A stretch of DNA of 64,000 nt, taken from the IMG/VR virus record IMGVR_UViG_3300035490_000323, positions 13,999 to 77,998 of that record; one strand, given 5' to 3'. The position numbers were made by a program, and so were the translations under genes. Shown here in pieces: positions 24,332 through 31,230 of the stretch. This stretch comes from a virus. Positions within the stretch are counted from its first letter, which is position 1; every line of letters starts with the position of its first letter. Under the pieces are notes generated by a model that was not told the DNA's origin, made no database searches, and worked only from the letters and a program-made list of their open reading frames with translations.

Positions 24332-24573
24332 CAGACGTTGTCCCCCGAGATGTCGCACTTGGGTGCCCCGCAGGGGCACATGACCGCAACGAACGTGCCT
24401 ATCCCCGTGGGGCAGACATGGAAGAAGTACAGGTCGCCGCACGTGCCCGGCTTGAATTTACACGTGCCGTGGCAGTCCTTCCGGCTGGCATAGCCCTCAA
24501 CCGGGGCATAGTGCTCCTTCTTCCAGGCCTCCAGCCTTTCCTTCTCGTCTGGCTCCAGCGTAAGGGTGGCCAT
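24331..24573 (-). CDS. Small Cys-rich hypothetical protein
   Basis: PTGIG...CPCG. Confidence 0.55.
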   Translation of the reverse strand: MATLTLEPDEKERLEAWKKEHYAPVEGYASRKDCHGTCKFKPGTCGDLYFFHVCPTGIGTFVAVMCPCGAPKCDISGDNV

Positions 24574-24590
24574 GCTTAGGATAATACCAG

Positions 24591-24900
24591 CCTGCGGGCC
24601 TGTAAGCCGAATTTTGTGCCCGGCCAGGGCCAGGCGACAGCCATTCGTCTAGGGCGGCCGTTGCCGGACGCCTCAAGCTCGCTACCCGAGGGTCGTGGCG
24701 GCCCGAGCAGGGCCTCCCCTCCTATTTGCGATTGCTCCCCGTAGAGATTGCCCGTTTCACACCGGACCTAACCGGCTCGTCTCTGTTGCTCTAATCGTCA
24801 CGCCCGGAGGGCATGCCGGGGCGTTACCCCGTACGGCGCTCTATGGAGTTCGGACTTTCCTCCCCCCCGTTGCCGGGGCGGCGGCTGTCCGGCCCGCAGG
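24591..24900 (-). ncRNA. rnpB: RNase P RNA (about 310 nt)
   Basis: Minus strand carries GAGGAAAGUCCG (CR-I), AGAGCAACAGA, GUGAAAC, AUGGCUGUC and ACAAAAUUCGGCUUA (CR-V); ends CCUGCGGGCC / GGCCCGCAGG form P1. Confidence 0.95.
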
Positions 24901-24923
24901 CCGGTACGCTATGGTTGGAAAAG

Positions 24924-25076
24924 CTAATATCCAGGCTTGACTACTACCGTGCCGACCGAGGGCCAGTATGCCGTGCCCGCAGGTACAGCAATGGGCCTAC
25001 CGTTCGACTCGTTCACTGCCTTGAGGACATCGCCGACAGCACAACTGGCGGCAAGGACGGGCCTATGCTTCTCCAT
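24924..25076 (-). CDS. 50-aa hypothetical protein
   Basis: AGGAGG-acc-ATG; MEKHRPVLAASC... Confidence 0.4.
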   Translation of the reverse strand: MEKHRPVLAASCAVGDVLKAVNESNGRPIAVPAGTAYWPSVGTVVVKPGY

Positions 25077-25236
25077 GGTCCTCCTGAGCTGGCAGAAGCC
25101 GCTTCTTCCACCTCCGCCAGTACCTCTTCCAGAAGCCCTTGACCTGCTCCGAGGGATACCGGCCATCGCCGTTATAGTCCCAGAGGATTCCCCTGCGCCT
25201 CCATCCCCTGCGTACCTTGCGGGCCCTCGCGTGCAT
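25063..25236 (-). CDS. 57-aa Arg/Trp-rich basic protein (not in the ORF track)
   Basis: MHARARKVRRGWRRRGILWDYNGDGRYPSEQVKGFWKRYWRRWKKRLLPAQEDHGEA. Confidence 0.4.
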   Translation of the reverse strand: MHARARKVRRGWRRRGILWDYNGDGRYPSEQVKGFWKRYWRRWKKRLLPAQEDHGEA

Positions 25237-25328
25237 GCCGTATGTGCGTGCCCGGATGGACCGAGTGGAGCCCCTTGCGGGGCCAGTACGGGTTGCCGGA
25301 GGTTGCTTCTACGGCGCACGCACAAGAG

Positions 25329-25682
25329 TGGTGGAGGCGTCGGGAGTTGAACCCGAGTCCGAAGAGTTCCACGACCAGGAGACTACACGCTTGTCCGGTT
25401 CCTTCTCGCCTTGCTCCAGGCCCCTATGGACTCCGGCAATCACAGGGCCCGTCCGCATGCCTTGTCTCGCCACGGGAGCGGCAAGCATCCCCTGGCCAGC
25501 CTCCCAATCGACGCCTGGCCCCCGCCCGAAAGGCGGAAGCGGGGCAGGCGGCCTAACCCTAAAGGTTAAGCAAACGCATACTGCATGTTGGCAGTTGCTA
25601 ATCCCATCCCTGTTACGGTCGGCATGGGGCCACCGGCGTGCCTCCTAGCTATGGGCGCTCCCGTCGATTCCGATACGCCCCC
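25329..25682 (-). ncRNA. ssrA: tmRNA, tag peptide (A)ANMQYAFA*
   Basis: 5' GGGGGCG...GAAUCGAC; 3' CUCGGGUUCAACUCCCGACGCCUCCACCA with G3:U; resume codon GCC at 25592, stop at 25568-25566. Confidence 0.95.
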
Positions 25683-25847
25683 GGAGACTGACTACTGCTG
25701 CTGCAAGCTGTAGGGCCGCCTCTAAGCCGCCACATCGCGCTGAGCCATTCTTCCATGGGCCCCTCGACTTTAGGCAGCGTGGTTGAGCAGCGGCCCCACT
25801 ACTACGAGAGGGGACGGGGGCTCGGACCCCGAATGCTTCCCCCCTGC

Positions 25848-25857
25848 TATATAATAC
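25848..25857 (-). promoter_or_regulatory. Putative -10 box GTATTATATA driving the tmRNA/RNase P unit
   Basis: Identical to the box at 28988-28997. Confidence 0.55.
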
Positions 25858-25866
25858 ACTGGAAAT

Positions 25867-25959
25867 TGGTCCCGGTGCTGGGAGTCGGACCCAGTCCATT
25901 CCCTAATCTGGGGATTCACGGTTTATAAGACCGCTCGTTCGGCCGCAAACTTCACCGGG
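25867..25959 (-). tRNA. Atypical tRNA, UAU anticodon (Ile, AUA) with long variable arm
   Basis: Acceptor CCCGGUG/CACCGGG-A-CCA; anticodon arm GCGGU-CUUAUAA-ACCGU; extra arm UCCC-CAGAUUA-GGGA; T-arm CUGGG-UCCGACU-CCCAG. Confidence 0.75.
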
Positions 25960-25965
25960 AAGGAA

Positions 25966-26042
25966 TGGCAGCGTAGACCGGGCTTGAACCGGCTATTGCC
26001 CTGGTTGAAGGCCAGGGGACTCGACTCTTCGTCTTCTACGCC
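25966..26042 (-). tRNA. tRNA-Glu(UUC), atypical D-arm, C33
   Basis: CCUGG-CCUUCAA-CCAGG; T-loop UUCAAGC; CCA encoded. Confidence 0.85.
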
Positions 26043-26205
26043 AAAAATTTAAGGCCGGATGGCATCCACGTTTGGGCCCATGCAGGCATGGCAAGGGCTG
26101 GCACCGGCCTCGGTTTGCCAGCTCCCACTACGTGGCCCGGTTAAGACCGCCGTCCCGATGCGACCACCAATCAGACCTGCGGTCAAGGTATATGGTGGCC
26201 TCGCT

Positions 26206-26280
26206 TGGAGGCGCAGGGGAGAATCGAACTCCCGCTTAAAGGTTTTGCAGACCTCTCCCTTCCCACTTGGGTACTGCGCC
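26206..26280 (-). tRNA. tRNA-Cys(GCA)
   Basis: Cloverleaf, loop CUGCAAA, U73, CCA. Confidence 0.95.
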
Positions 26281-26286
26281 GAATCC

Positions 26287-26361
26287 TGGAGGCCCGAGAG
26301 GGAATCGAACCCTCGCGTAGCGGTTTTGCAGACCGCCGCCTTGCCACTTGGCTACCGGGCC
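26287..26361 (-). tRNA. tRNA-Cys(GCA)
   Basis: Cloverleaf, loop CUGCAAA, U73, CCA. Confidence 0.95.
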
Positions 26362-26666
26362 AATACCTTCCTGGACCCGCCCTGCTCCCGCTCGAAGCCG
26401 TGCTCCCAGAGCCGGTGCGAGTCCTCCCCGAGCATCTCGGGGGTATAGTCGTTGTCGAAGAACCAGCGGACCAGGTGCGTCCTCGGGTACCGCTTGAACA
26501 GCTCCTCGAAGCACTCGAAGGTCAGGCGGTCCAGGAACTCCTCCGGCACGTAGCAGTGCTCCTTGTCCCAGGCCTTCCCAATCTCCTTCGTCCACCAGTC
26601 CCAGTTGAGCTTCCCGCGCAGGTACCGCATGAGAAGCTCGGGCTCCCGGCAGCCCTCCTCGGGCAT
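26352..26666 (-). CDS. Hypothetical protein inside the tRNA array (true start may be further upstream)
   Basis: 104-aa ORF; the frame stays open upstream past 26800. Confidence 0.5.
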   Translation of the reverse strand: MPEEGCREPELLMRYLRGKLNWDWWTKEIGKAWDKEHCYVPEEFLDRLTFECFEELFKRYPRTHLVRWFFDNDYTPEMLGEDSHRLWEHGFEREQGGSRKVLAR

Positions 26667-26855
26667 CCTCCCGTGGGTCTCGCAGCTAAAGCAGCACTCG
26701 CCGCCGCTGAGCCCGCCCTCCCTTAGCGGGGGAGGGGTCGTGTTGGTCCGGTCCCACTGCTGGCCTGTCCATGGGGTGGAGCACCTGCTCCACCTTAGGT
26801 AGCTTCCAGCAGTTCTAGGTACCTCTTGGTCAGCCTCATACGGGCCTCACGGGCT

Positions 26856-26931
26856 TGGTAGGGTAGGCGGGAATCGAACCCGCAATCTCCTGGTTGAGGG
26901 CCAGGTGACTTAACCGTTCGTCTACTACCCC
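26856..26931 (-). tRNA. tRNA-Glu(CUC), C33
   Basis: CCUGG-CCCUCAA-CCAGG; CCA. Confidence 0.9.
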
Positions 26932-26938
26932 GGAAACT

Positions 26939-27015
26939 TGGTAGCGTCGGTGGGATTTGAACCCACGGTTTGAGCCTTGAGGGGGCCCCGTCCTAGGCCG
27001 CTAGACGACGACGCC
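26939..27015 (-). tRNA. tRNA-Glu(CUC), C33
   Basis: GGGCC-CCCUCAA-GGCUC; CCA. Confidence 0.9.
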
Positions 27016-27196
27016 ACAATCCCTGCGGCAATGGGCAGCGGCCTCGCATCGGGAAGGCACCTTCCGGTGGACCAGTATGGCGTAGCCGCATGGCGGCATC
27101 CCGTTCCCTTCGCCTGCAAGTCCTTCGCATCCGCTGCCAGCTTGCAGCCTCCGCAGAGCTTGGTGGCCTCGGGGGTTTCCCCCTCCGGCCGCAGCT

Positions 27197-27272
27197 TGGT
27201 GGAACCGGTGGGAGTTGAACCCACAACCCCTAGACTGCCAGCCTAGTGCTCTCCCAGTTGAGCTACGGTCCC
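27197..27272 (-). tRNA. tRNA-Ala(GGC)
   Basis: G3:U70; loop CUGGCAG; CCA. Confidence 0.95.
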
Positions 27273-27407
27273 GAATTTCGCCCCAGGGGGACTTGAACCC
27301 CTCTCCCACGGTCGCCTGCAAGCTCGCATGGTTGCCCCCCCGCTAGCGCCTGCTCGGCACAGGGAGGAGGTTGCAGCCCCCTCCCCAGCCTCGGGGGCTG
27401 AGGAACT

Positions 27408-27482
27408 TGGTGCGTCCTACAGGAGTCGAACCTGTCGCTCCTTCTGTGTCAGAGAAGGCGTCTACCGCTGGCATAAGGACGC
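27408..27482 (-). tRNA. tRNA-Val(GAC)
   Basis: CUUCU-CUGACAC-AGAAG; CCA. Confidence 0.9.
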
Positions 27483-27488
27483 TGAACT

Positions 27489-27566
27489 TGGCGGGTACGA
27501 CGAGATTTGAACTCGCGGTCTCCTCCGTGACAGGGAGGCGAGCACTCCGGGCTGCTCCACGTACCC
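27489..27566 (-). tRNA. tRNA-Asp(GUC)
   Basis: Loop CUGUCAC; G73; CCA. Confidence 0.95.
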
Positions 27567-27573
27567 GTGAACT

Positions 27574-27647
27574 TGGCGGTCCTAGCGAGACTCGAACTCG
27601 CTTTTCATCCGTGACAGGGATGCGTAATACCCATATACCATAGAACC
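27574..27647 (-). tRNA. tRNA-Asp(GUC)
   Basis: Loop CUGUCAC; G73; CCA. Confidence 0.9.
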
Positions 27648-27653
27648 GAAAAA

Positions 27654-27791
27654 CTAATTGGGGGCCTTCTTGCCCCCCTGCTTTGCCTTGCGGGCACCCT
27701 TCTTATGACCGGCCGGGTAGGGCTTGACCCGCCTCTGGCACATCTCACACCCTGCAACATGGCCATGCCGGTTGGCATGAGCGTTCCCCAT
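27654..27791 (-). CDS. 45-aa basic peptide inside the tRNA array
   Basis: GGAG Shine-Dalgarno; MGNAHANRHGHVAGCEMCQRRVKPYPAGHKKGARKAKQGGKKAPN. Confidence 0.45.
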   Translation of the reverse strand: MGNAHANRHGHVAGCEMCQRRVKPYPAGHKKGARKAKQGGKKAPN

Positions 27792-27810
27792 CAGGGTCTC
27801 CGATAAAACT

Positions 27811-27886
27811 TGGTGGAACCGATGGGAGTCGAACCCACAACCTCAGCATTGCGAATGCTGCGCTCTCCCAGTTGAGCTACGGTCCC
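27811..27886 (-). tRNA. tRNA-Ala(CGC)
   Basis: G3:U70; loop UUCGCAA; CCA. Confidence 0.95.
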
Positions 27887-28001
27887 GTTCGGGGACTCCG
27901 GGCGGTTACTCCATCGTCCCACAGGTCCAGTCTCTTAGGCCCCGGTCGGGGTAGGCCACCGCAGCCCCCCCTACAGGGGGCCTAGAGGGCTGAACCGTTC
28001 T

Positions 28002-28076
28002 TGGAGCGGGTAGCCGGACTCGGACCGGTCTTCTCTGGCTTGGAGGGCCAGGGCACACCCCTTATACCATACCCGC
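28002..28076 (-). tRNA. tRNA-Gly(UCC), C33
   Basis: CUGGC-CCUCCAA-GCCAG; U73; CCA. Confidence 0.9.
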
Positions 28077-28193
28077 AATCTCTCCAGGATAGCCTTGCCA
28101 CGGCCAGAAAGTAGCGGACTGCACGCCGGTTGCTACGCCTGCGCCCAGCCGGTAGCAACTACCCCCTGACCTTCGCAGGGCTACCCTGAAACT

Positions 28194-28267
28194 TGGAGCG
28201 GGCAGCCGGACTCGGACCGGCTTCGCTGGCTTGGGAAGCCAGGGCACAGCCCATATACCATGCCCGC
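28194..28267 (-). tRNA. tRNA-Gly(CCC)
   Basis: CUGGC-UUCCCAA-GCCAG; U73; CCA. Confidence 0.9.
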
Positions 28268-28336
28268 AAATACCAATGGGTGCCTATTTGGAAAGTGTGA
28301 CCCGCAGGTCAGCCATTAAGTCATGACACCCAATCT

Positions 28337-28415
28337 TGGTGGACCATGTGGGGATTGAACCCACCTGCTATCTGCATTGCAAGTGCAGCGACCACCCCGT
28401 GCAGTCCCATGGCCC
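28337..28415 (-). tRNA. tRNA-Ala(UGC)
   Basis: G3:U70; CUGCA-CUUGCAA-UGCAG; CCA. Confidence 0.9.
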
Positions 28416-28493
28416 ACGAGGCCATGCCCGATGCCAGGGGCTTTTGCGGCACTAAGCCATTTCGCCTTTGGGCACCAGCATGGTCCCGGAACT

Positions 28494-28570
28494 TGGAGCG
28501 GCTGGAGGGATTCGGACCCTCGACCTCTTCCTTGGCAAGGAAGCATTCTACCGGGCTGAACTACAGCCGC
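28494..28570 (-). tRNA. tRNA-Gly(GCC)
   Basis: CUUCC-UUGCCAA-GGAAG; U73; CCA. Confidence 0.95.
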
Positions 28571-28653
28571 TCAAAAACTAATGTGGCAAGCAGGACTCCC
28601 ACCTGCCGTGGCTGTGACCCTCAAGCCTCCCTTTCCATTGCCACAAGCTAGCT

Positions 28654-28729
28654 TGGTGCCCTCGGCAGGGTTCGGACCTGCGCCCTCTCGCGTGTGAAGC
28701 GAGCGCTCTAACCGCTGAGCTACAAGGGC
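28654..28729 (-). tRNA. tRNA-Val(CAC)
   Basis: CUCGC-UUCACAC-GCGAG; CCA. Confidence 0.95.
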
Positions 28730-28735
28730 CAATCT

Positions 28736-28813
28736 TGGTACTCCGGGAGGGACTCGAACCCCCGAGTTGGTTGCTTGTAGGGCAACTGGCTTAGCCGCTC
28801 GCCGCACCGGAGT
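28736..28813 (-). tRNA. tRNA-Val(UAC), C33
   Basis: GUUGC-CCUACAA-GCAAC; CCA. Confidence 0.9.
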
Positions 28814-28825
28814 AAAACTCTCTGG

Positions 28826-28853
28826 AAACAAAAATGGCACCCTTTCGGGTGCC
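28826..28853 (-). terminator. Intrinsic terminator of the tRNA-array leader (attenuator terminator)
   Basis: GGCACCC-GAAA-GGGUGCC followed by AUUUUUGUUU, 13 nt before the first tRNA. Confidence 0.85.
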
Positions 28854-28875
28854 TCCGGGAGCCAAAAGCTGGGTT

Positions 28876-28971
28876 TTACTGCCCAGCGCCTCCCGAAGGC
28901 GAAGTATCGCCCTCACACCCGGCGGCCACTGCCGCTATGACATCGACTTCCGTTATGTGTAGGGCCAGCAT
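28876..28971 (-). CDS. 31-aa leader (sensor) peptide MLALHITEVDVIAAVAAGCEGDTSPSGGAGQ
   Basis: GGAG Shine-Dalgarno; sits between promoter and terminator; codons 8-22 all match tRNAs of the array. Confidence 0.8.
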   Translation of the reverse strand: MLALHITEVDVIAAVAAGCEGDTSPSGGAGQ

Positions 28972-28987
28972 CTTCGCTCTCTCCACC

Positions 28988-28997
28988 TATATAATAC
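28988..28997 (-). promoter_or_regulatory. Putative -10 box GTATTATATA of the tRNA operon
   Basis: TATTAT hexamer upstream of the leader Shine-Dalgarno; same box at 25848-25857. Confidence 0.6.
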
Positions 28998-29099
28998 CTC
29001 CGGTAGTCAAAGTTCTCAGGATTTTTTTGCAGCGCCTACCTCAGGAGCAGGCCAAGCACAAGGATATAGGCCAGCACCGCCGCCACGAACGCTATCCCC

Positions 29100-29423
29100 T
29101 TAGCCCTTTCCTTCCACATCGGCCCTTCCATAGACCAGCCTGAGCCTCTCATTGCTGGCAAGCAGCTTCTCTGCCCTGTCGCACTGGGCGCACCCGCAGC
29201 CCTCCAGGTACGGGGGAGGAGAGTAGTCAAAGCTGCTGAAGAACACCCTGTGGCCCTGGCCGTCGTACCTGTTCAGGTCATTCGTCGTCCTGCCGCCCTT
29301 GAGCGGAATCTCATGGAACAGCACGTCCAGGCGGTGGGGGCCGCACAGCACGATGGCCTCCCTGTCGAACCATACGTGGTGCAGGCCGTCCGTCCTCTCG
29401 CAGCCCAGCTCCTCGCAGACCAT
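29100..29423 (-). CDS. Hypothetical protein
   Basis: Tiling ORF with Cys/His pairs. Confidence 0.5.
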   Translation of the reverse strand: MVCEELGCERTDGLHHVWFDREAIVLCGPHRLDVLFHEIPLKGGRTTNDLNRYDGQGHRVFFSSFDYSPPPYLEGCGCAQCDRAEKLLASNERLRLVYGRADVEGKG

Positions 29424-29435
29424 CCTCGTTGCCTC

Positions 29436-29726
29436 CTATGCCGTTGGCGTATCGTGGTTCGGGGGCCTCTGCGGCTTCCCGGCGTCCTTGGTATGCTGCC
29501 TTAGCTCGTCGATGGTGAAGGTCCTGGTCATCCACAGGATGCCCTGGATGAACCCTATCCACCTGCTGGCCTTGGCCCTGTCGGGCTGCTTGCCGCCGAG
29601 GTGGAGGAGCATCTCGTCCGCCATCCAGGCAGCGTGCAGCAGGGGGGGGCCTCCCTTGAAGGACCCGCATACCCTCTCCCCCAGGGCCTTACGGTAGAAC
29701 TCCAGCAGCCTGCGCTCCCTGTCCAT
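29436..29726 (-). CDS. Hypothetical protein
   Basis: H..WM...KASRWIGFIQG.LW motif seen in small phage proteins. Confidence 0.6.
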   Translation of the reverse strand: MDRERRLLEFYRKALGERVCGSFKGGPPLLHAAWMADEMLLHLGGKQPDRAKASRWIGFIQGILWMTRTFTIDELRQHTKDAGKPQRPPNHDTPTA

Positions 29727-30192
29727 GCCTGGCCTCCCCGCGTACCTTCATGAGAATCCTGCCTAGGTGGTTGTGCTTCTCCCTGCCCTCGCACTTGCGG
29801 CACGAGCATGCGCCCCAGAAGTTGTCGTGCCAGTAGTTGCCCTCCACCAGCTCCTCCTCGCCGGTCGCCAGGAGCTTCTCCCGGAGGGTGGGGTAGAGGC
29901 TGAACTTCTGCCTGACGAGGTCCTCCATGATGCCGAGGCTGGCCTGCTCCCAGTCCTTGCGGAGGTGCCCCTGCGCCGTGAGCTTCCTGGCCAGCTTCTT
30001 GGCCTCGCCAGGGGTAGTCCCTATCCCGTCCGCCGACCTGAACAGTATCCTGAGGCCTGGGGCCAGGAACTTTGCCGCCTGGTAGGCATGCTCCACGGAG
30101 TCGTACGCCTCCCCGTCCAGCCGGACAGGGAAGGGCCAGTAGAAGTTCGAGCAGAAGTCCAGCCTCCCCCGGAACGTGGCCTCACGACTCAT
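29689..30192 (-). CDS. NADAR (YbiA-like) family protein
   Basis: SNFY...SVEHAYQAAKF...KF....LLATG..ELVEGN.W.D.FWG...NHLGRILM.VR. Confidence 0.92.
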   Translation of the reverse strand: MSREATFRGRLDFCSNFYWPFPVRLDGEAYDSVEHAYQAAKFLAPGLRILFRSADGIGTTPGEAKKLARKLTAQGHLRKDWEQASLGIMEDLVRQKFSLYPTLREKLLATGEEELVEGNYWHDNFWGACSCRKCEGREKHNHLGRILMKVRGEARHGQGAQAAGVLP

Positions 30193-30748
30193 AGTGCTGG
30201 CTCTCTCCCTCGCTGCTCATGATTAAGTAAGGGGGCCTGACGTGGGCGGCAAAGCTGGCCGAGACGGCAAGCGCCATGCGTACCTTTTCCTTGGCATGCA
30301 TCACCGGAAGGGTCGCCAGTGCCCCCAGGGCATAGGGGCTGCCGCACCCTACGGCCTCGTAGCCCCCCTTCCTCTCGAACACCTGGAGGTCGTTCTCGAA
30401 CCGGAATATCCTGCCCTGGATGCCTGCCAGGAATATGCCTCCGCTGGCGGGGTCCTCCTGGGTGACGGTATACCCCCCTGCCCCGAACGCCTTCCTGATG
30501 GCGTCCACGAGGTCCACGGTCATGTACCGCATGATGTGCTTGTCGCTGCCCCAGTCCGGCTTCGGAACCTCAAGGCGGTGCTGGAGGAGCTGGGTCATCC
30601 TCAGCGAGCCCACGGCCCCTATGAGCAGGGGGCCGTTTATGAACACCTTCGGGTTCTGGAGGACTACGATGTCCTCGCCGTCCGATGCTGCGCTGTCGGC
30701 CCCCATCCATATGACATCGCCCCTCGCTACCGCTACGACACAGGACAT
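30182..30748 (-). CDS. HslV/proteasome-like Ntn peptidase
   Basis: M-SCVVAV...MGADS...KVF...AVGCGSPYALGAL; Ser takes the place of the usual N-terminal Thr nucleophile. Confidence 0.75.
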   Translation of the reverse strand: MSCVVAVARGDVIWMGADSAASDGEDIVVLQNPKVFINGPLLIGAVGSLRMTQLLQHRLEVPKPDWGSDKHIMRYMTVDLVDAIRKAFGAGGYTVTQEDPASGGIFLAGIQGRIFRFENDLQVFERKGGYEAVGCGSPYALGALATLPVMHAKEKVRMALAVSASFAAHVRPPYLIMSSEGESQHYES

Positions 30749-31230
30749 CCTTCCTCCTTCTTGGGCACGCCCAGGAGGGCAACCTGCCTGGCTATCCTCC
30801 TGGGGGGCCACTCTAGCTCAATACCGACCCTGCGCAGGGTGGCCGTCACGTCCACGCCGCCTGCCTCCGGGTTATAGTCTGCGGTATAGCCCTCGTGCCC
30901 CGGCTGCAAGAAGAACGCTACCACCCTGTTCCTGAGCTGCTTCCTGGCCCGGGGCTGCCAGTACCGGCAGTTCCTTAGCTGGCGGTCCGTCCACTTAGGG
31001 TGCCGTAGGCGCATCCTGAGGACATGCGATGCGAGGTCGAACTCGTTGACGACAGCGTAGACGGGCCTGGAGAGGTCGAGCCTGTCGGCAAGGGAGGGGC
31101 ACGGGGGGCATCCAGGCTTCCTGCCAAGGTTAGGGCACCCCCTGGGATGGCCTGGGTAAGGCAGCCTGCACAGCTTGGCGGGGGAGTCGAAGAAGGCTAT
31201 CCCCCTCAGCTCTGCCACGGTAAAGCCCAT
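30733..31230 (-). CDS. DUF2284-like metal-binding protein
   Basis: C..PYP....GCPN.G....CPP...PEAGGVDV..T. Confidence 0.6.
   Translation of the reverse strand: MGFTVAELRGIAFFDSPAKLCRLPYPGHPRGCPNLGRKPGCPPCPSLADRLDLSRPVYAVVNEFDLASHVLRMRLRHPKWTDRQLRNCRYWQPRARKQLRNRVVAFFLQPGHEGYTADYNPEAGGVDVTATLRRVGIELEWPPRRIARQVALLGVPKKEEGCPVS

Follow-up and report, generated by a model that had tools for sequence, protein, structure and literature searches.

The 64,000-nucleotide (nt) stretch analysed here (the window, part of IMG/VR virus record IMGVR_UViG_3300035490_000323) carries on its minus strand a 31-codon open reading frame (ORF), an intrinsic terminator and, directly behind them, an array of 17 transfer RNA (tRNA) genes. 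This locus is likely a ribosome-mediated, leader-peptide transcription attenuator that controls the phage tRNA operon, and its sequence suggests that the phage probably makes the array tRNAs only when ribosomes decode the cognate codons slowly. An attenuator had been proposed in a preliminary description of the window, and that reading is backed by conservation of the reading frame, covariation in the terminator, an invariant GGC triplet and a match between leader codons and array content.

In the proposed mechanism, a phage promoter would start the transcript about 13 nt upstream of the 31-codon ORF, and RNA polymerase would next reach the intrinsic terminator, whose U-tract ends 13 nt short of the first tRNA gene. 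When no ribosome translates the leader, or when one quickly reaches the stop codon, which lies in an inner-hairpin loop, segment 2 of the RNA would be sequestered by segment 1 or masked by the ribosome; with segment 2 unavailable, the full terminator would form and little tRNA would be made. A ribosome stalled within the block of array-cognate codons would cover segment 1, and the freed segment 2 (GCCUUCGGGAG) would pair with segment 3 (CUCCCGGAGGC), taking the three base pairs (bp) at the foot of the terminator. With the foot lost, polymerase would read through into the 17 tRNA genes. Because its products would speed leader translation, such a device would provide supply-on-demand feedback on decoding capacity for GNN codons (those with G in first position), Cys codons and possibly AUA. 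We infer that the terminator works in the host, that stalling gives read-through (the direction of the switch) and which stalls count.

Leader codons and array content

The source of the window is a giant peat-soil phage. The 78-kb record that contains it is estimated to be 25% complete and has a G+C content of about 64%. The window stretch is present in 20 peat, wetland or soil DNA runs (metagenomes of 19 studies), and no RNA run was among the holders listed. All of the elements named in the preliminary description (promoter box, Shine-Dalgarno sequence, ORF, helices, terminator and 17 tRNAs) were found where it had placed them (Table 1).

The array represents the complete GNN column of the genetic code plus two tRNAs for Cys and tRNA-Ile-UAU, with 14 distinct anticodons in all, and the order of its tRNAs is the same in relatives. 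ARAGORN called 16 of the 17 genes; Rfam supplied the other, at 25969-26042 (-), whose loop (CCUUCAA) gives an anticodon read as Glu-UUC.

Array-cognate codons were defined as GNN, UGY and AUA. Codons 8-22 of the leader read as previously reported and are all array-cognate, matching 12 of the 14 anticodons exactly. A GGA codon adds UCC as the thirteenth, and UAC reads GUG by wobble, so that under standard wobble rules all 14 are sampled (p=2e-3). Over the leader as a whole, 21 of 30 sense codons are cognate, compared with 39% across the phage genes (p=6.7e-4), and the probability of an uninterrupted run of at least 15 is 3e-6. Among the 229 ORFs of 25-45 codons in all frames of the window, the leader alone contains a run of at least 10 cognate codons, and no other samples 14 of 14 anticodons. 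Its G+C content at third codon positions (GC3) is about 61%, as opposed to 82% for genes, because rare synonymous codons are used (GAA, GAT, TGT, GCA, ATA).

Table 1. Positions of the leader, RNA and array features in the window, with the corresponding arrays and leaders of genome G001.
Feature	Position	Strand	Description
Promoter-like motif	28987..29007	(-)	ACTACCG-N3-GTATTATATAG; -10 TATTAT at 28996-28991
Shine-Dalgarno sequence	28981..28984	(-)	GGAG, 9 nt upstream of ATG
Leader ORF	28876..28971	(-)	31 codons + TAA; MLALHITEVDVIAAVAAGCEGDTSPSGGAGQ then stop; ATG at 28971, TAA 28878-28876
Run of 15 array-cognate codons (codons 8-22)	28906..28950	(-)	GAA GTC GAT GTC ATA GCG GCA GTG GCC GCC GGG TGT GAG GGC GAT
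Segment 1	28907..28914	(-)	GAGGGCGA; proposed anti-antiterminator arm inside ORF, partner UCGCCUUC; 8 bp, one G.U
Segment 2	28890..28902	(-)	UCGCCUUCGGGAG; common to 1:2 hairpin and 2:3 antiterminator helix
Inner hairpin	28868..28887	(-)	GCUGGG-CAGUAAAA-CCCAGC; leader stop codon in loop
Segment 3	28851..28861	(-)	CUCCCGGAGGC; antiterminator 3' arm, final GGC is the base of the terminator 5' arm
Intrinsic terminator	28826..28853	(-)	GGCACCC-GAAA-GGGUGCC + AUUUUUGUUU; 7-bp GC-rich stem, GAAA loop, U-tract
tRNA array, putatively regulated	25867..28813	(-)	Val x3, Gly x3, Ala x3, Asp x2, Glu x3, Cys x2, Ile-UAU
Val tRNAs, GNN array		(-)	Anticodons GAC/CAC/UAC
Ala tRNAs, GNN array		(-)	Anticodons GGC/CGC/UGC
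Gly tRNAs, GNN array		(-)	Anticodons GCC/CCC/UCC
Asp tRNAs, GNN array		(-)	Anticodon GUC x2
Glu tRNAs, GNN array		(-)	Anticodons CUC x2 and UUC
G001 array A			Tyr, Leu x6, Ser x3
G001 array B			His, Arg, Asn, Lys, Phe, Met, Pro, Gln-CUG, Trp
G001 array C			GNN + Cys
G001 array D			Ile-GAU, Thr x4, Gln-UUG
G001 leader A			MKNLSSNSLSSLSYSSSLLSGLVLPDGWDG then stop; own-array cognate 18/29 (expected 5.5); anticodons 9/9, chance of all 4e-3
G001 leader B			MRNRKPNPMQWQPKRHFSRPSFGGLPFAP then stop; own-array cognate 22/28 (expected 9.7); anticodons 16/16, chance of all 4e-5
G001 leader C			GNN leader, homologue of the window leader; own-array cognate 17/32 (expected 11.1); anticodons 13/13, chance of all 4e-3
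G001 leader D			MLTITMPHTQTQTTISSGGGACLA then stop; own-array cognate 10/23 (expected 2.9); anticodons 5/5, chance of all 4e-2

The same design recurs in a related genome, G001 (a 316,945-bp record, 99% complete, to which locus L011 belongs), which has 62 tRNA matches in four arrays. Jointly, arrays A-D cover all sense codons but ATA, and each stands behind its own cassette of promoter motif, mini-ORF, hairpin whose loop carries the stop codon, and terminator. Every leader samples all anticodons of its own array, whereas its cognate counts for the other three do not exceed expectation. The true pairing of leaders with arrays yields 67 matched codons, the other 23 possible pairings give at most 50, and none of 200,000 random draws reached 67. 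The match extends to isoacceptors: leader B, ahead of tRNA-Gln-CUG, encodes Gln as CAG, and leader D, ahead of tRNA-Gln-UUG, encodes it as CAA. A homologous D leader is carried by G003. Within G001 array B, no extra cassettes were seen after Trp or before Arg-UCU. In G001 (L049-L052), the members of array A are precisely the tRNAs with a long arm (Leu, Ser, Tyr), and array C holds the GNN column; by their content, the arrays seem to be regulatory units into which tRNAs are grouped according to class or codon column.

A cultured and unrelated phage, Caulobacter phage phiCbK, shows the same leader-to-array pattern. Its gp335 (NC_019405.1 49540-49677; L056:2541-2678) is a 45-residue ORF annotated as a hypothetical protein; an annotated rho-independent terminator comes next, and behind it tRNAs for Pro (two), Lys (two), Leu (three), Ala and Ser (two). 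Of 44 codons, 23 are cognate to this block, as against one for each other block, and 10 of 10 anticodons are sampled; gp335 thus resembles a leader peptide serving the Pro/Lys/Leu/Ala/Ser block. The next phiCbK ORF (…YRQFVRQIQVV…; L056:4342-4440, unannotated) also lies before a terminator and samples 8 of 8 anticodons of a Phe/Val/Ile/Gln block. The preliminary description had made its case depend on leader codons following array content, and they do so both across the four G001 arrays and in phiCbK.

Conservation of frame, helices and promoter

Close relatives were obtained by an exact-pattern scan of Joint Genome Institute (JGI) metagenomes, which yielded seven contigs carrying the same array. 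Contigs from other sequencing runs showed more abundant strains with a slightly altered leader. In IMG/VR, single-protein scans for close relatives with the 107-, 209- and 104-residue ORFs returned nothing, nor did exact DNA scans with the tRNA-Ala 5' half and the leader core, and GenBank phages matched at the tRNA level only. Distant relatives were reached through homologues of an HslV-like gene (50-55% identity, on long contigs) followed by an IMG/VR profile scan, which gave nine loci in four further lineages, all with a homologous leader and a GNN array starting with Val-UAC. In all, seven distinct homologous leaders, drawn from IMG/VR and peat metagenomes, were compared.

Among three strain types, the leader is 100% identical over 28941-28882 (60 nt) and 28873-28836 (38 nt), whereas elsewhere in the same comparison the tRNAs are 80-95%, the transfer-messenger RNA (tmRNA) 92%, the RNase P RNA 93.5% and protein genes 80-87% identical. 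The differences between close-strain leaders are ACG to TCG, GTC to GTG or GCG, GAT to GAC, and a rewritten hairpin loop that keeps an in-frame stop (CAG-TAA, TAA or TAG). The peptides of the four further lineages (MNMKTAITNPVDLIEAVAAVCEGGDTSPSGGLG, MNMKTVITNPVDTIEAVAAVCEGGDTSPSGGLG, MNMATHITLGDIEAVGIAEAAVVCEGGDTSPSGGLG and MNMATHITLGDIEAVGIAEAAVVCEGGDTSPSGVIG, each ending at a stop codon) have cognate blocks that likewise use V, A, G, D, E, C and I.

Frame and ATG are retained in all seven distinct homologues. Indels of 1, 1, 2 and 5 codons separate them, every one a multiple of 3, and the inserted codons GGT ATA GCC GAA GCC again specify Gly, Ile, Ala and Glu. Despite changes in the loop of the inner hairpin, an in-frame TAA or TAG is found there in every GNN lineage, as it is in G001 leaders A, B and D. 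Between lineages L017 and L018, nucleotide changes at the three codon positions number 1/1/9, with eight synonymous and two non-synonymous codons. The in-frame indels, the stop kept in the loop and this positional bias argue that the leader frame is under coding selection; together with the Shine-Dalgarno sequence, the ATG and the preserved start, they support its translation. The GGAG is retained in close variants, and L017 and L018 have GGGAG or GAGAG at comparable spacing.

The RNA elements are conserved as well. Across the seven leaders, all seven terminator pairs are 100% paired, four of the seven show compensatory changes, and a U-rich tail is always kept (5' arm variants include GGCACCC, GGCGGCU, GGCGCUC and GGCACCUA…). 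The stem varies between lineages outside its GGC:GCC base, whereas the base GGC and both of its partners, GCC at 28898-28900 in segment 2 and GCC at 28836-28838, are invariant. This fits a base triplet held by two alternative partners, the proposed switch point. UCGCCUUCGGG of segment 2 is invariant in all seven leaders. The 1:2 hairpin is retained in all lineages, even through a one-codon insertion, with a UACN loop in which N can be any of the four bases. As in the GNN leader, leader A of G001 contains a helix terminating in the first GGC of its terminator, and leaders B and D carry exact or near-exact copies of the terminator 3' arm within the ORF (CGGUGGG, GGCGGC).

Homology with relatives starts at the promoter motif, and the flanks upstream of it diverge. 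ACTACCG-N3-GTATTAT occurs once per leader-bearing locus in the GNN, A and D cassettes, and in G001 the full motif precedes cassettes A, C and D; cassette B and the GNN leader of L016/L017 retain the GTATTAT part alone. From its position, transcription would start near 28984. The shorter GTATTATATAG has just two occurrences in the whole 78-kb record, the second upstream of the tmRNA gene (25847-25857, -). As it has no canonical -35 element, the motif may define a phage-specific promoter class for stable RNAs.

Folding models and alternative explanations

The 1:2 helix (GAGGGCGA/UCGCCUUC) spans codons 20-25 of the leader, and the antiterminator helix (GCCUUCGGGAG/CUCCCGGAGGC) comprises 11 bp, one of them G.U. 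Free of ribosomes, the RNA is very stable (-84 kcal/mol, z=-5.7) and an 8-bp version of the 2:3 helix forms together with the complete terminator. A long hairpin that buries the AUG, in a stretch of the ORF that is variable among lineages, was not taken as a conserved element. The behaviour of the leader during translation was modeled by folding with a 29-nt ribosome mask stepped along the ORF; these are equilibrium folds, a weak guide to a kinetic switch.

In these models, masking the 1:2 helix with the ribosomal aminoacyl (A) site at codons 17-20 (GCC GGG UGU GAG) frees segment 2. Only at these positions do the bottom three terminator pairs of the window leader fall to p=0.09-0.43, and from codon 21 on they are back at 0.98. 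All GNN lineages behave alike: the terminator base drops to p=0.01-0.26 only with the A site on ...GUG UGU GAG GGA and returns to 0.98 one codon later. The conserved GNN switch is real in the models, yet narrow and partial. Leader B of G001 has a broader predicted response, since stalls at codons 2-14, 17 and 18 reduce its terminator to 0.06-0.36 from 0.92 in ribosome-free RNA, and over those codons it would act as a classical attenuator.

A second antiterminator, CGGGUGU (28921-28915) with GCACCCG (28852-28846), was considered and set aside; it is not consistently present across the GNN lineages and is outcompeted by the terminator at equilibrium. In nascent RNA of the window lineage alone, CGGGUGU is predicted to trap GCACCCG at p about 0.8 for stalls on codons 4-10, and the pairing is possibly a lineage-specific addition.

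Several observations weigh against attenuation. In the GNN leader, no more than about 4 of its 15 cognate codons give a switch at equilibrium, where stalls at codons 8-16 have no predicted effect. The antiterminator and the terminator of this leader overlap in only three of seven bp (GGC), and the upper four terminator pairs stay formed in every GNN-leader model. Leader A behaves classically in part but, in the absence of a ribosome, is expected from the models to be mostly read through, and leader D does not switch in the models. In the free RNA, the AUG region is paired with the 3' half of the ORF, and the 5' untranslated region that the promoter motif implies is short, about 13 nt. The commonest strain type has an interrupted U-tract (UUUCGUGUUUU). 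That same type, the commonest related strain, lacks tRNA-Ile-UAU and has in its place a small gene (L004:2950-3230) for a presumably secreted protein with a signal-peptide-like N-terminus, yet both ATA codons are retained in strains without this tRNA; the G001 leader also keeps ATA, and no UAU tRNA was detected in G001. The ATA codons therefore do not track tRNA-Ile-UAU, and the correspondence between leader and array is not perfect.

These points bear on the finer claims of the preliminary description. The helices that it called mutually exclusive are present, with the GGC and its partners invariant, but antiterminator and terminator share only 3 nt and the models leave the upper 4 bp standing. 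It had noted that Cys and ATA codons are both represented; they are present, although the ATA codons persist where their tRNA is absent. Its expectation that late stalls act directly agrees with the models, in which codons 17-20 free segment 2, whereas the early codons show nothing at equilibrium. Its OR-gate over isoacceptors is consistent with the sampling of all anticodons, although in the equilibrium models the switch is limited to about four A-site positions. We regard as tentative, and rather doubtful, the stronger proposal that the cassettes are per-array, per-isoacceptor sensors in which loss of any sampled tRNA, by anticodon-nuclease cleavage or a collapse of charging, triggers a burst of replacement phage tRNAs; the anticodon-nuclease (defence) trigger is speculation.

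Alternatively, the ORF could be translated and codon-matched but follow a different logic. The terminator might be fixed and leaky, with the mini-ORF acting on precursor stability or processing, Rho access or ribosome loading, or the switch might be reversed, smooth translation allowing read-through and stalling causing termination. Such schemes would accommodate the persistence of the upper terminator pairs, the confinement of the change to a narrow stall window, the non-classical models of leaders A and D, and the predicted formation of the 2:3 helix in nascent RNA even when no ribosome is present. They are nevertheless unlikely, because about 12 nt separate the terminator stem from a ribosome positioned at the stop codon, which therefore cannot melt it directly, because the invariant GGC/GCC triple pairing and the terminator 3'-arm copies in leaders B and D are hallmarks of stall-induced antitermination, and because the leader B model switches in the classical direction.

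It is improbable that the ORF is a functional micropeptide gene that merely precedes the array, with the hairpin and U-tract as its own terminator and the tRNAs expressed by read-through. The peptide is conserved (…CEGGDTSPSGG) with synonymous changes, and phiCbK gp335 carries a protein annotation. A micropeptide would leave unexplained, however, why four peptides in one genome spell the amino acids of their own arrays and sample every anticodon, why 20 codons show no synonymous change among strains whose genes are 13-20% different, and why the competing helices are conserved.

An untranslated structured RNA (a small RNA, a processing or stability element, or a riboswitch-like leader) in which the ORF is incidental would account for the very stable fold, the paired AUG and a leader nucleotide conservation that exceeds that of the tRNAs. 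We consider it highly improbable, given that the indels are all in frame, that an in-frame stop is kept within a variable loop, and that L017 and L018 differ chiefly at third positions. No Rfam family was matched in the leader, and no T-box (RF00230-type) or other cis-regulatory match was found at E<=1 in 24500-29500; an RNA-only account also offers no explanation for the codon-array match across cassettes. Chance has next to no probability: GNN codons are common in a 64% GC genome, 39% of gene codons being array-cognate with two runs of at least 15 in 17,255 gene codons, but the p values range from 1e-3 to below 5e-6 and the pattern is replicated in four cassettes and phiCbK.

The RNA island and comparison with known systems

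The array belongs to an RNA island at 24587-28813 (-) with 17 tRNAs, a tmRNA and an RNase P RNA. Downstream of the tRNAs lie a class A bacterial RNase P RNA (188 bits) and a tmRNA with the tag ANMQYAFA, at 24587-24900 (-) and 25329-25682 (-), respectively, which are 92-93% identical across related strains; the distant relatives L012 and L017 likewise carry a tmRNA. In all three Glu tRNAs (26856-27015 and 25969-26042, -) the loop reads CC-CUC/UUC-AA, the base immediately 5' of the anticodon being C where U is nearly universal. The tRNA-Ile-UAU (25867-25959, -) has a long extra arm and scores best with the selenocysteine (Sec) model of Rfam; ATA is used at 13.6 per 1000 codons despite the GC3 of 82%. 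Inter-tRNA hairpins followed by a T-rich tail (…TTAGTTTT) are located within the array at 28585-28607 and 27660-27677 (-) and may be internal terminators or processing signals. An L004-type strain lacks 29036-29423 (-), which holds a 107-residue ORF and a small hydrophobic ORF directly upstream of the leader, as well as 26352-26666 (-), a 104-residue ORF within the array; both look like insertions in an otherwise conserved island. The HslV-like gene, an N-terminal nucleophile (Ntn)-hydrolase at 30182-30811 (-), is 50-85% identical among relatives and syntenic with the leader and GNN array in all of those found.

If the locus works as proposed, a textbook regulatory principle extends to a new target class, tRNA genes, and the speed of decoding is linked to tRNA supply by direct feedback. 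The sorting of arrays into blocks would then be explained, every block being a separately sensed unit of regulation, and the leaders would amount to small natural sensors for the availability of single isoacceptors. Should the per-isoacceptor proposal also hold, large phages would carry a modular, self-tuning counter-defence in which the genetic code is split among a few independently gated arrays. Because the same design is found in the cultured phage phiCbK, the idea can be tested at the bench, beyond metagenomic sequence.

Phage tRNA arrays are usually viewed as codon-usage supplements or as replacements for destroyed host tRNAs. The clusters of T4 and T5 are co-transcribed arrays thought to supplement or replace host tRNAs, and they resemble the present arrays, which would likewise be co-transcribed; no leader-peptide control of T4/T5-type clusters was found in the literature searched. 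The preliminary description knew of no precedent, and literature searches on attenuators or leader peptides of tRNA genes and phage tRNA arrays likewise returned no relevant description.

Leader-peptide attenuators are classically known from amino-acid operons, such as trpL, hisL, leuL and pheL of E. coli/Salmonella and the multivalent thrL and ilvL (ilvGMEDA). In these, a promoter-proximal ORF is rich in the sensed codons, 1:2, 2:3 and 3:4 helices compete, and a ribosome stall selects the antiterminator. The present leaders share the short ORF with putatively sensed codons, the predicted competition of helices and an intrinsic terminator just upstream of the putatively regulated genes. They differ in that the GNN antiterminator and terminator have only 3 nt in common and that an additional hairpin, placed between segments 2 and 3, holds the stop codon in its loop. 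A T-box recognizes a single uncharged tRNA by direct binding, with no need for a ribosome, and pheM senses one amino acid. As in pheST/pheM and T-box control of synthetase genes, charged-tRNA supply here would set a choice between terminator and antiterminator and thereby a component of the translation apparatus, but those systems do not control tRNA genes and the present locus gave no T-box match.

The nearest published regulated tRNA array that we found is the trn operon of Anabaena sp. PCC 7120, a 26-tRNA array that is normally silent and is induced under translational stress (PMC8421152, PMC10272220). It resembles the present case in that an accessory tRNA array is switched on when translation is impaired. 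As these reports describe it, however, it is a bacterial megaplasmid operon under the protein repressor TrcR, with no codon-matched mini-ORF described, whereas the array considered here is a phage array preceded by such an ORF. Compared with the known attenuators, which regulate biosynthetic enzymes and repeat codons for one to three amino acids, the proposed device is new in its target, tRNA genes; in its sensor, which samples up to 14-16 isoacceptors with one or a few codons each, mostly one; and in its feedback, the product tRNA acting directly on the sensor by speeding translation of the leader.

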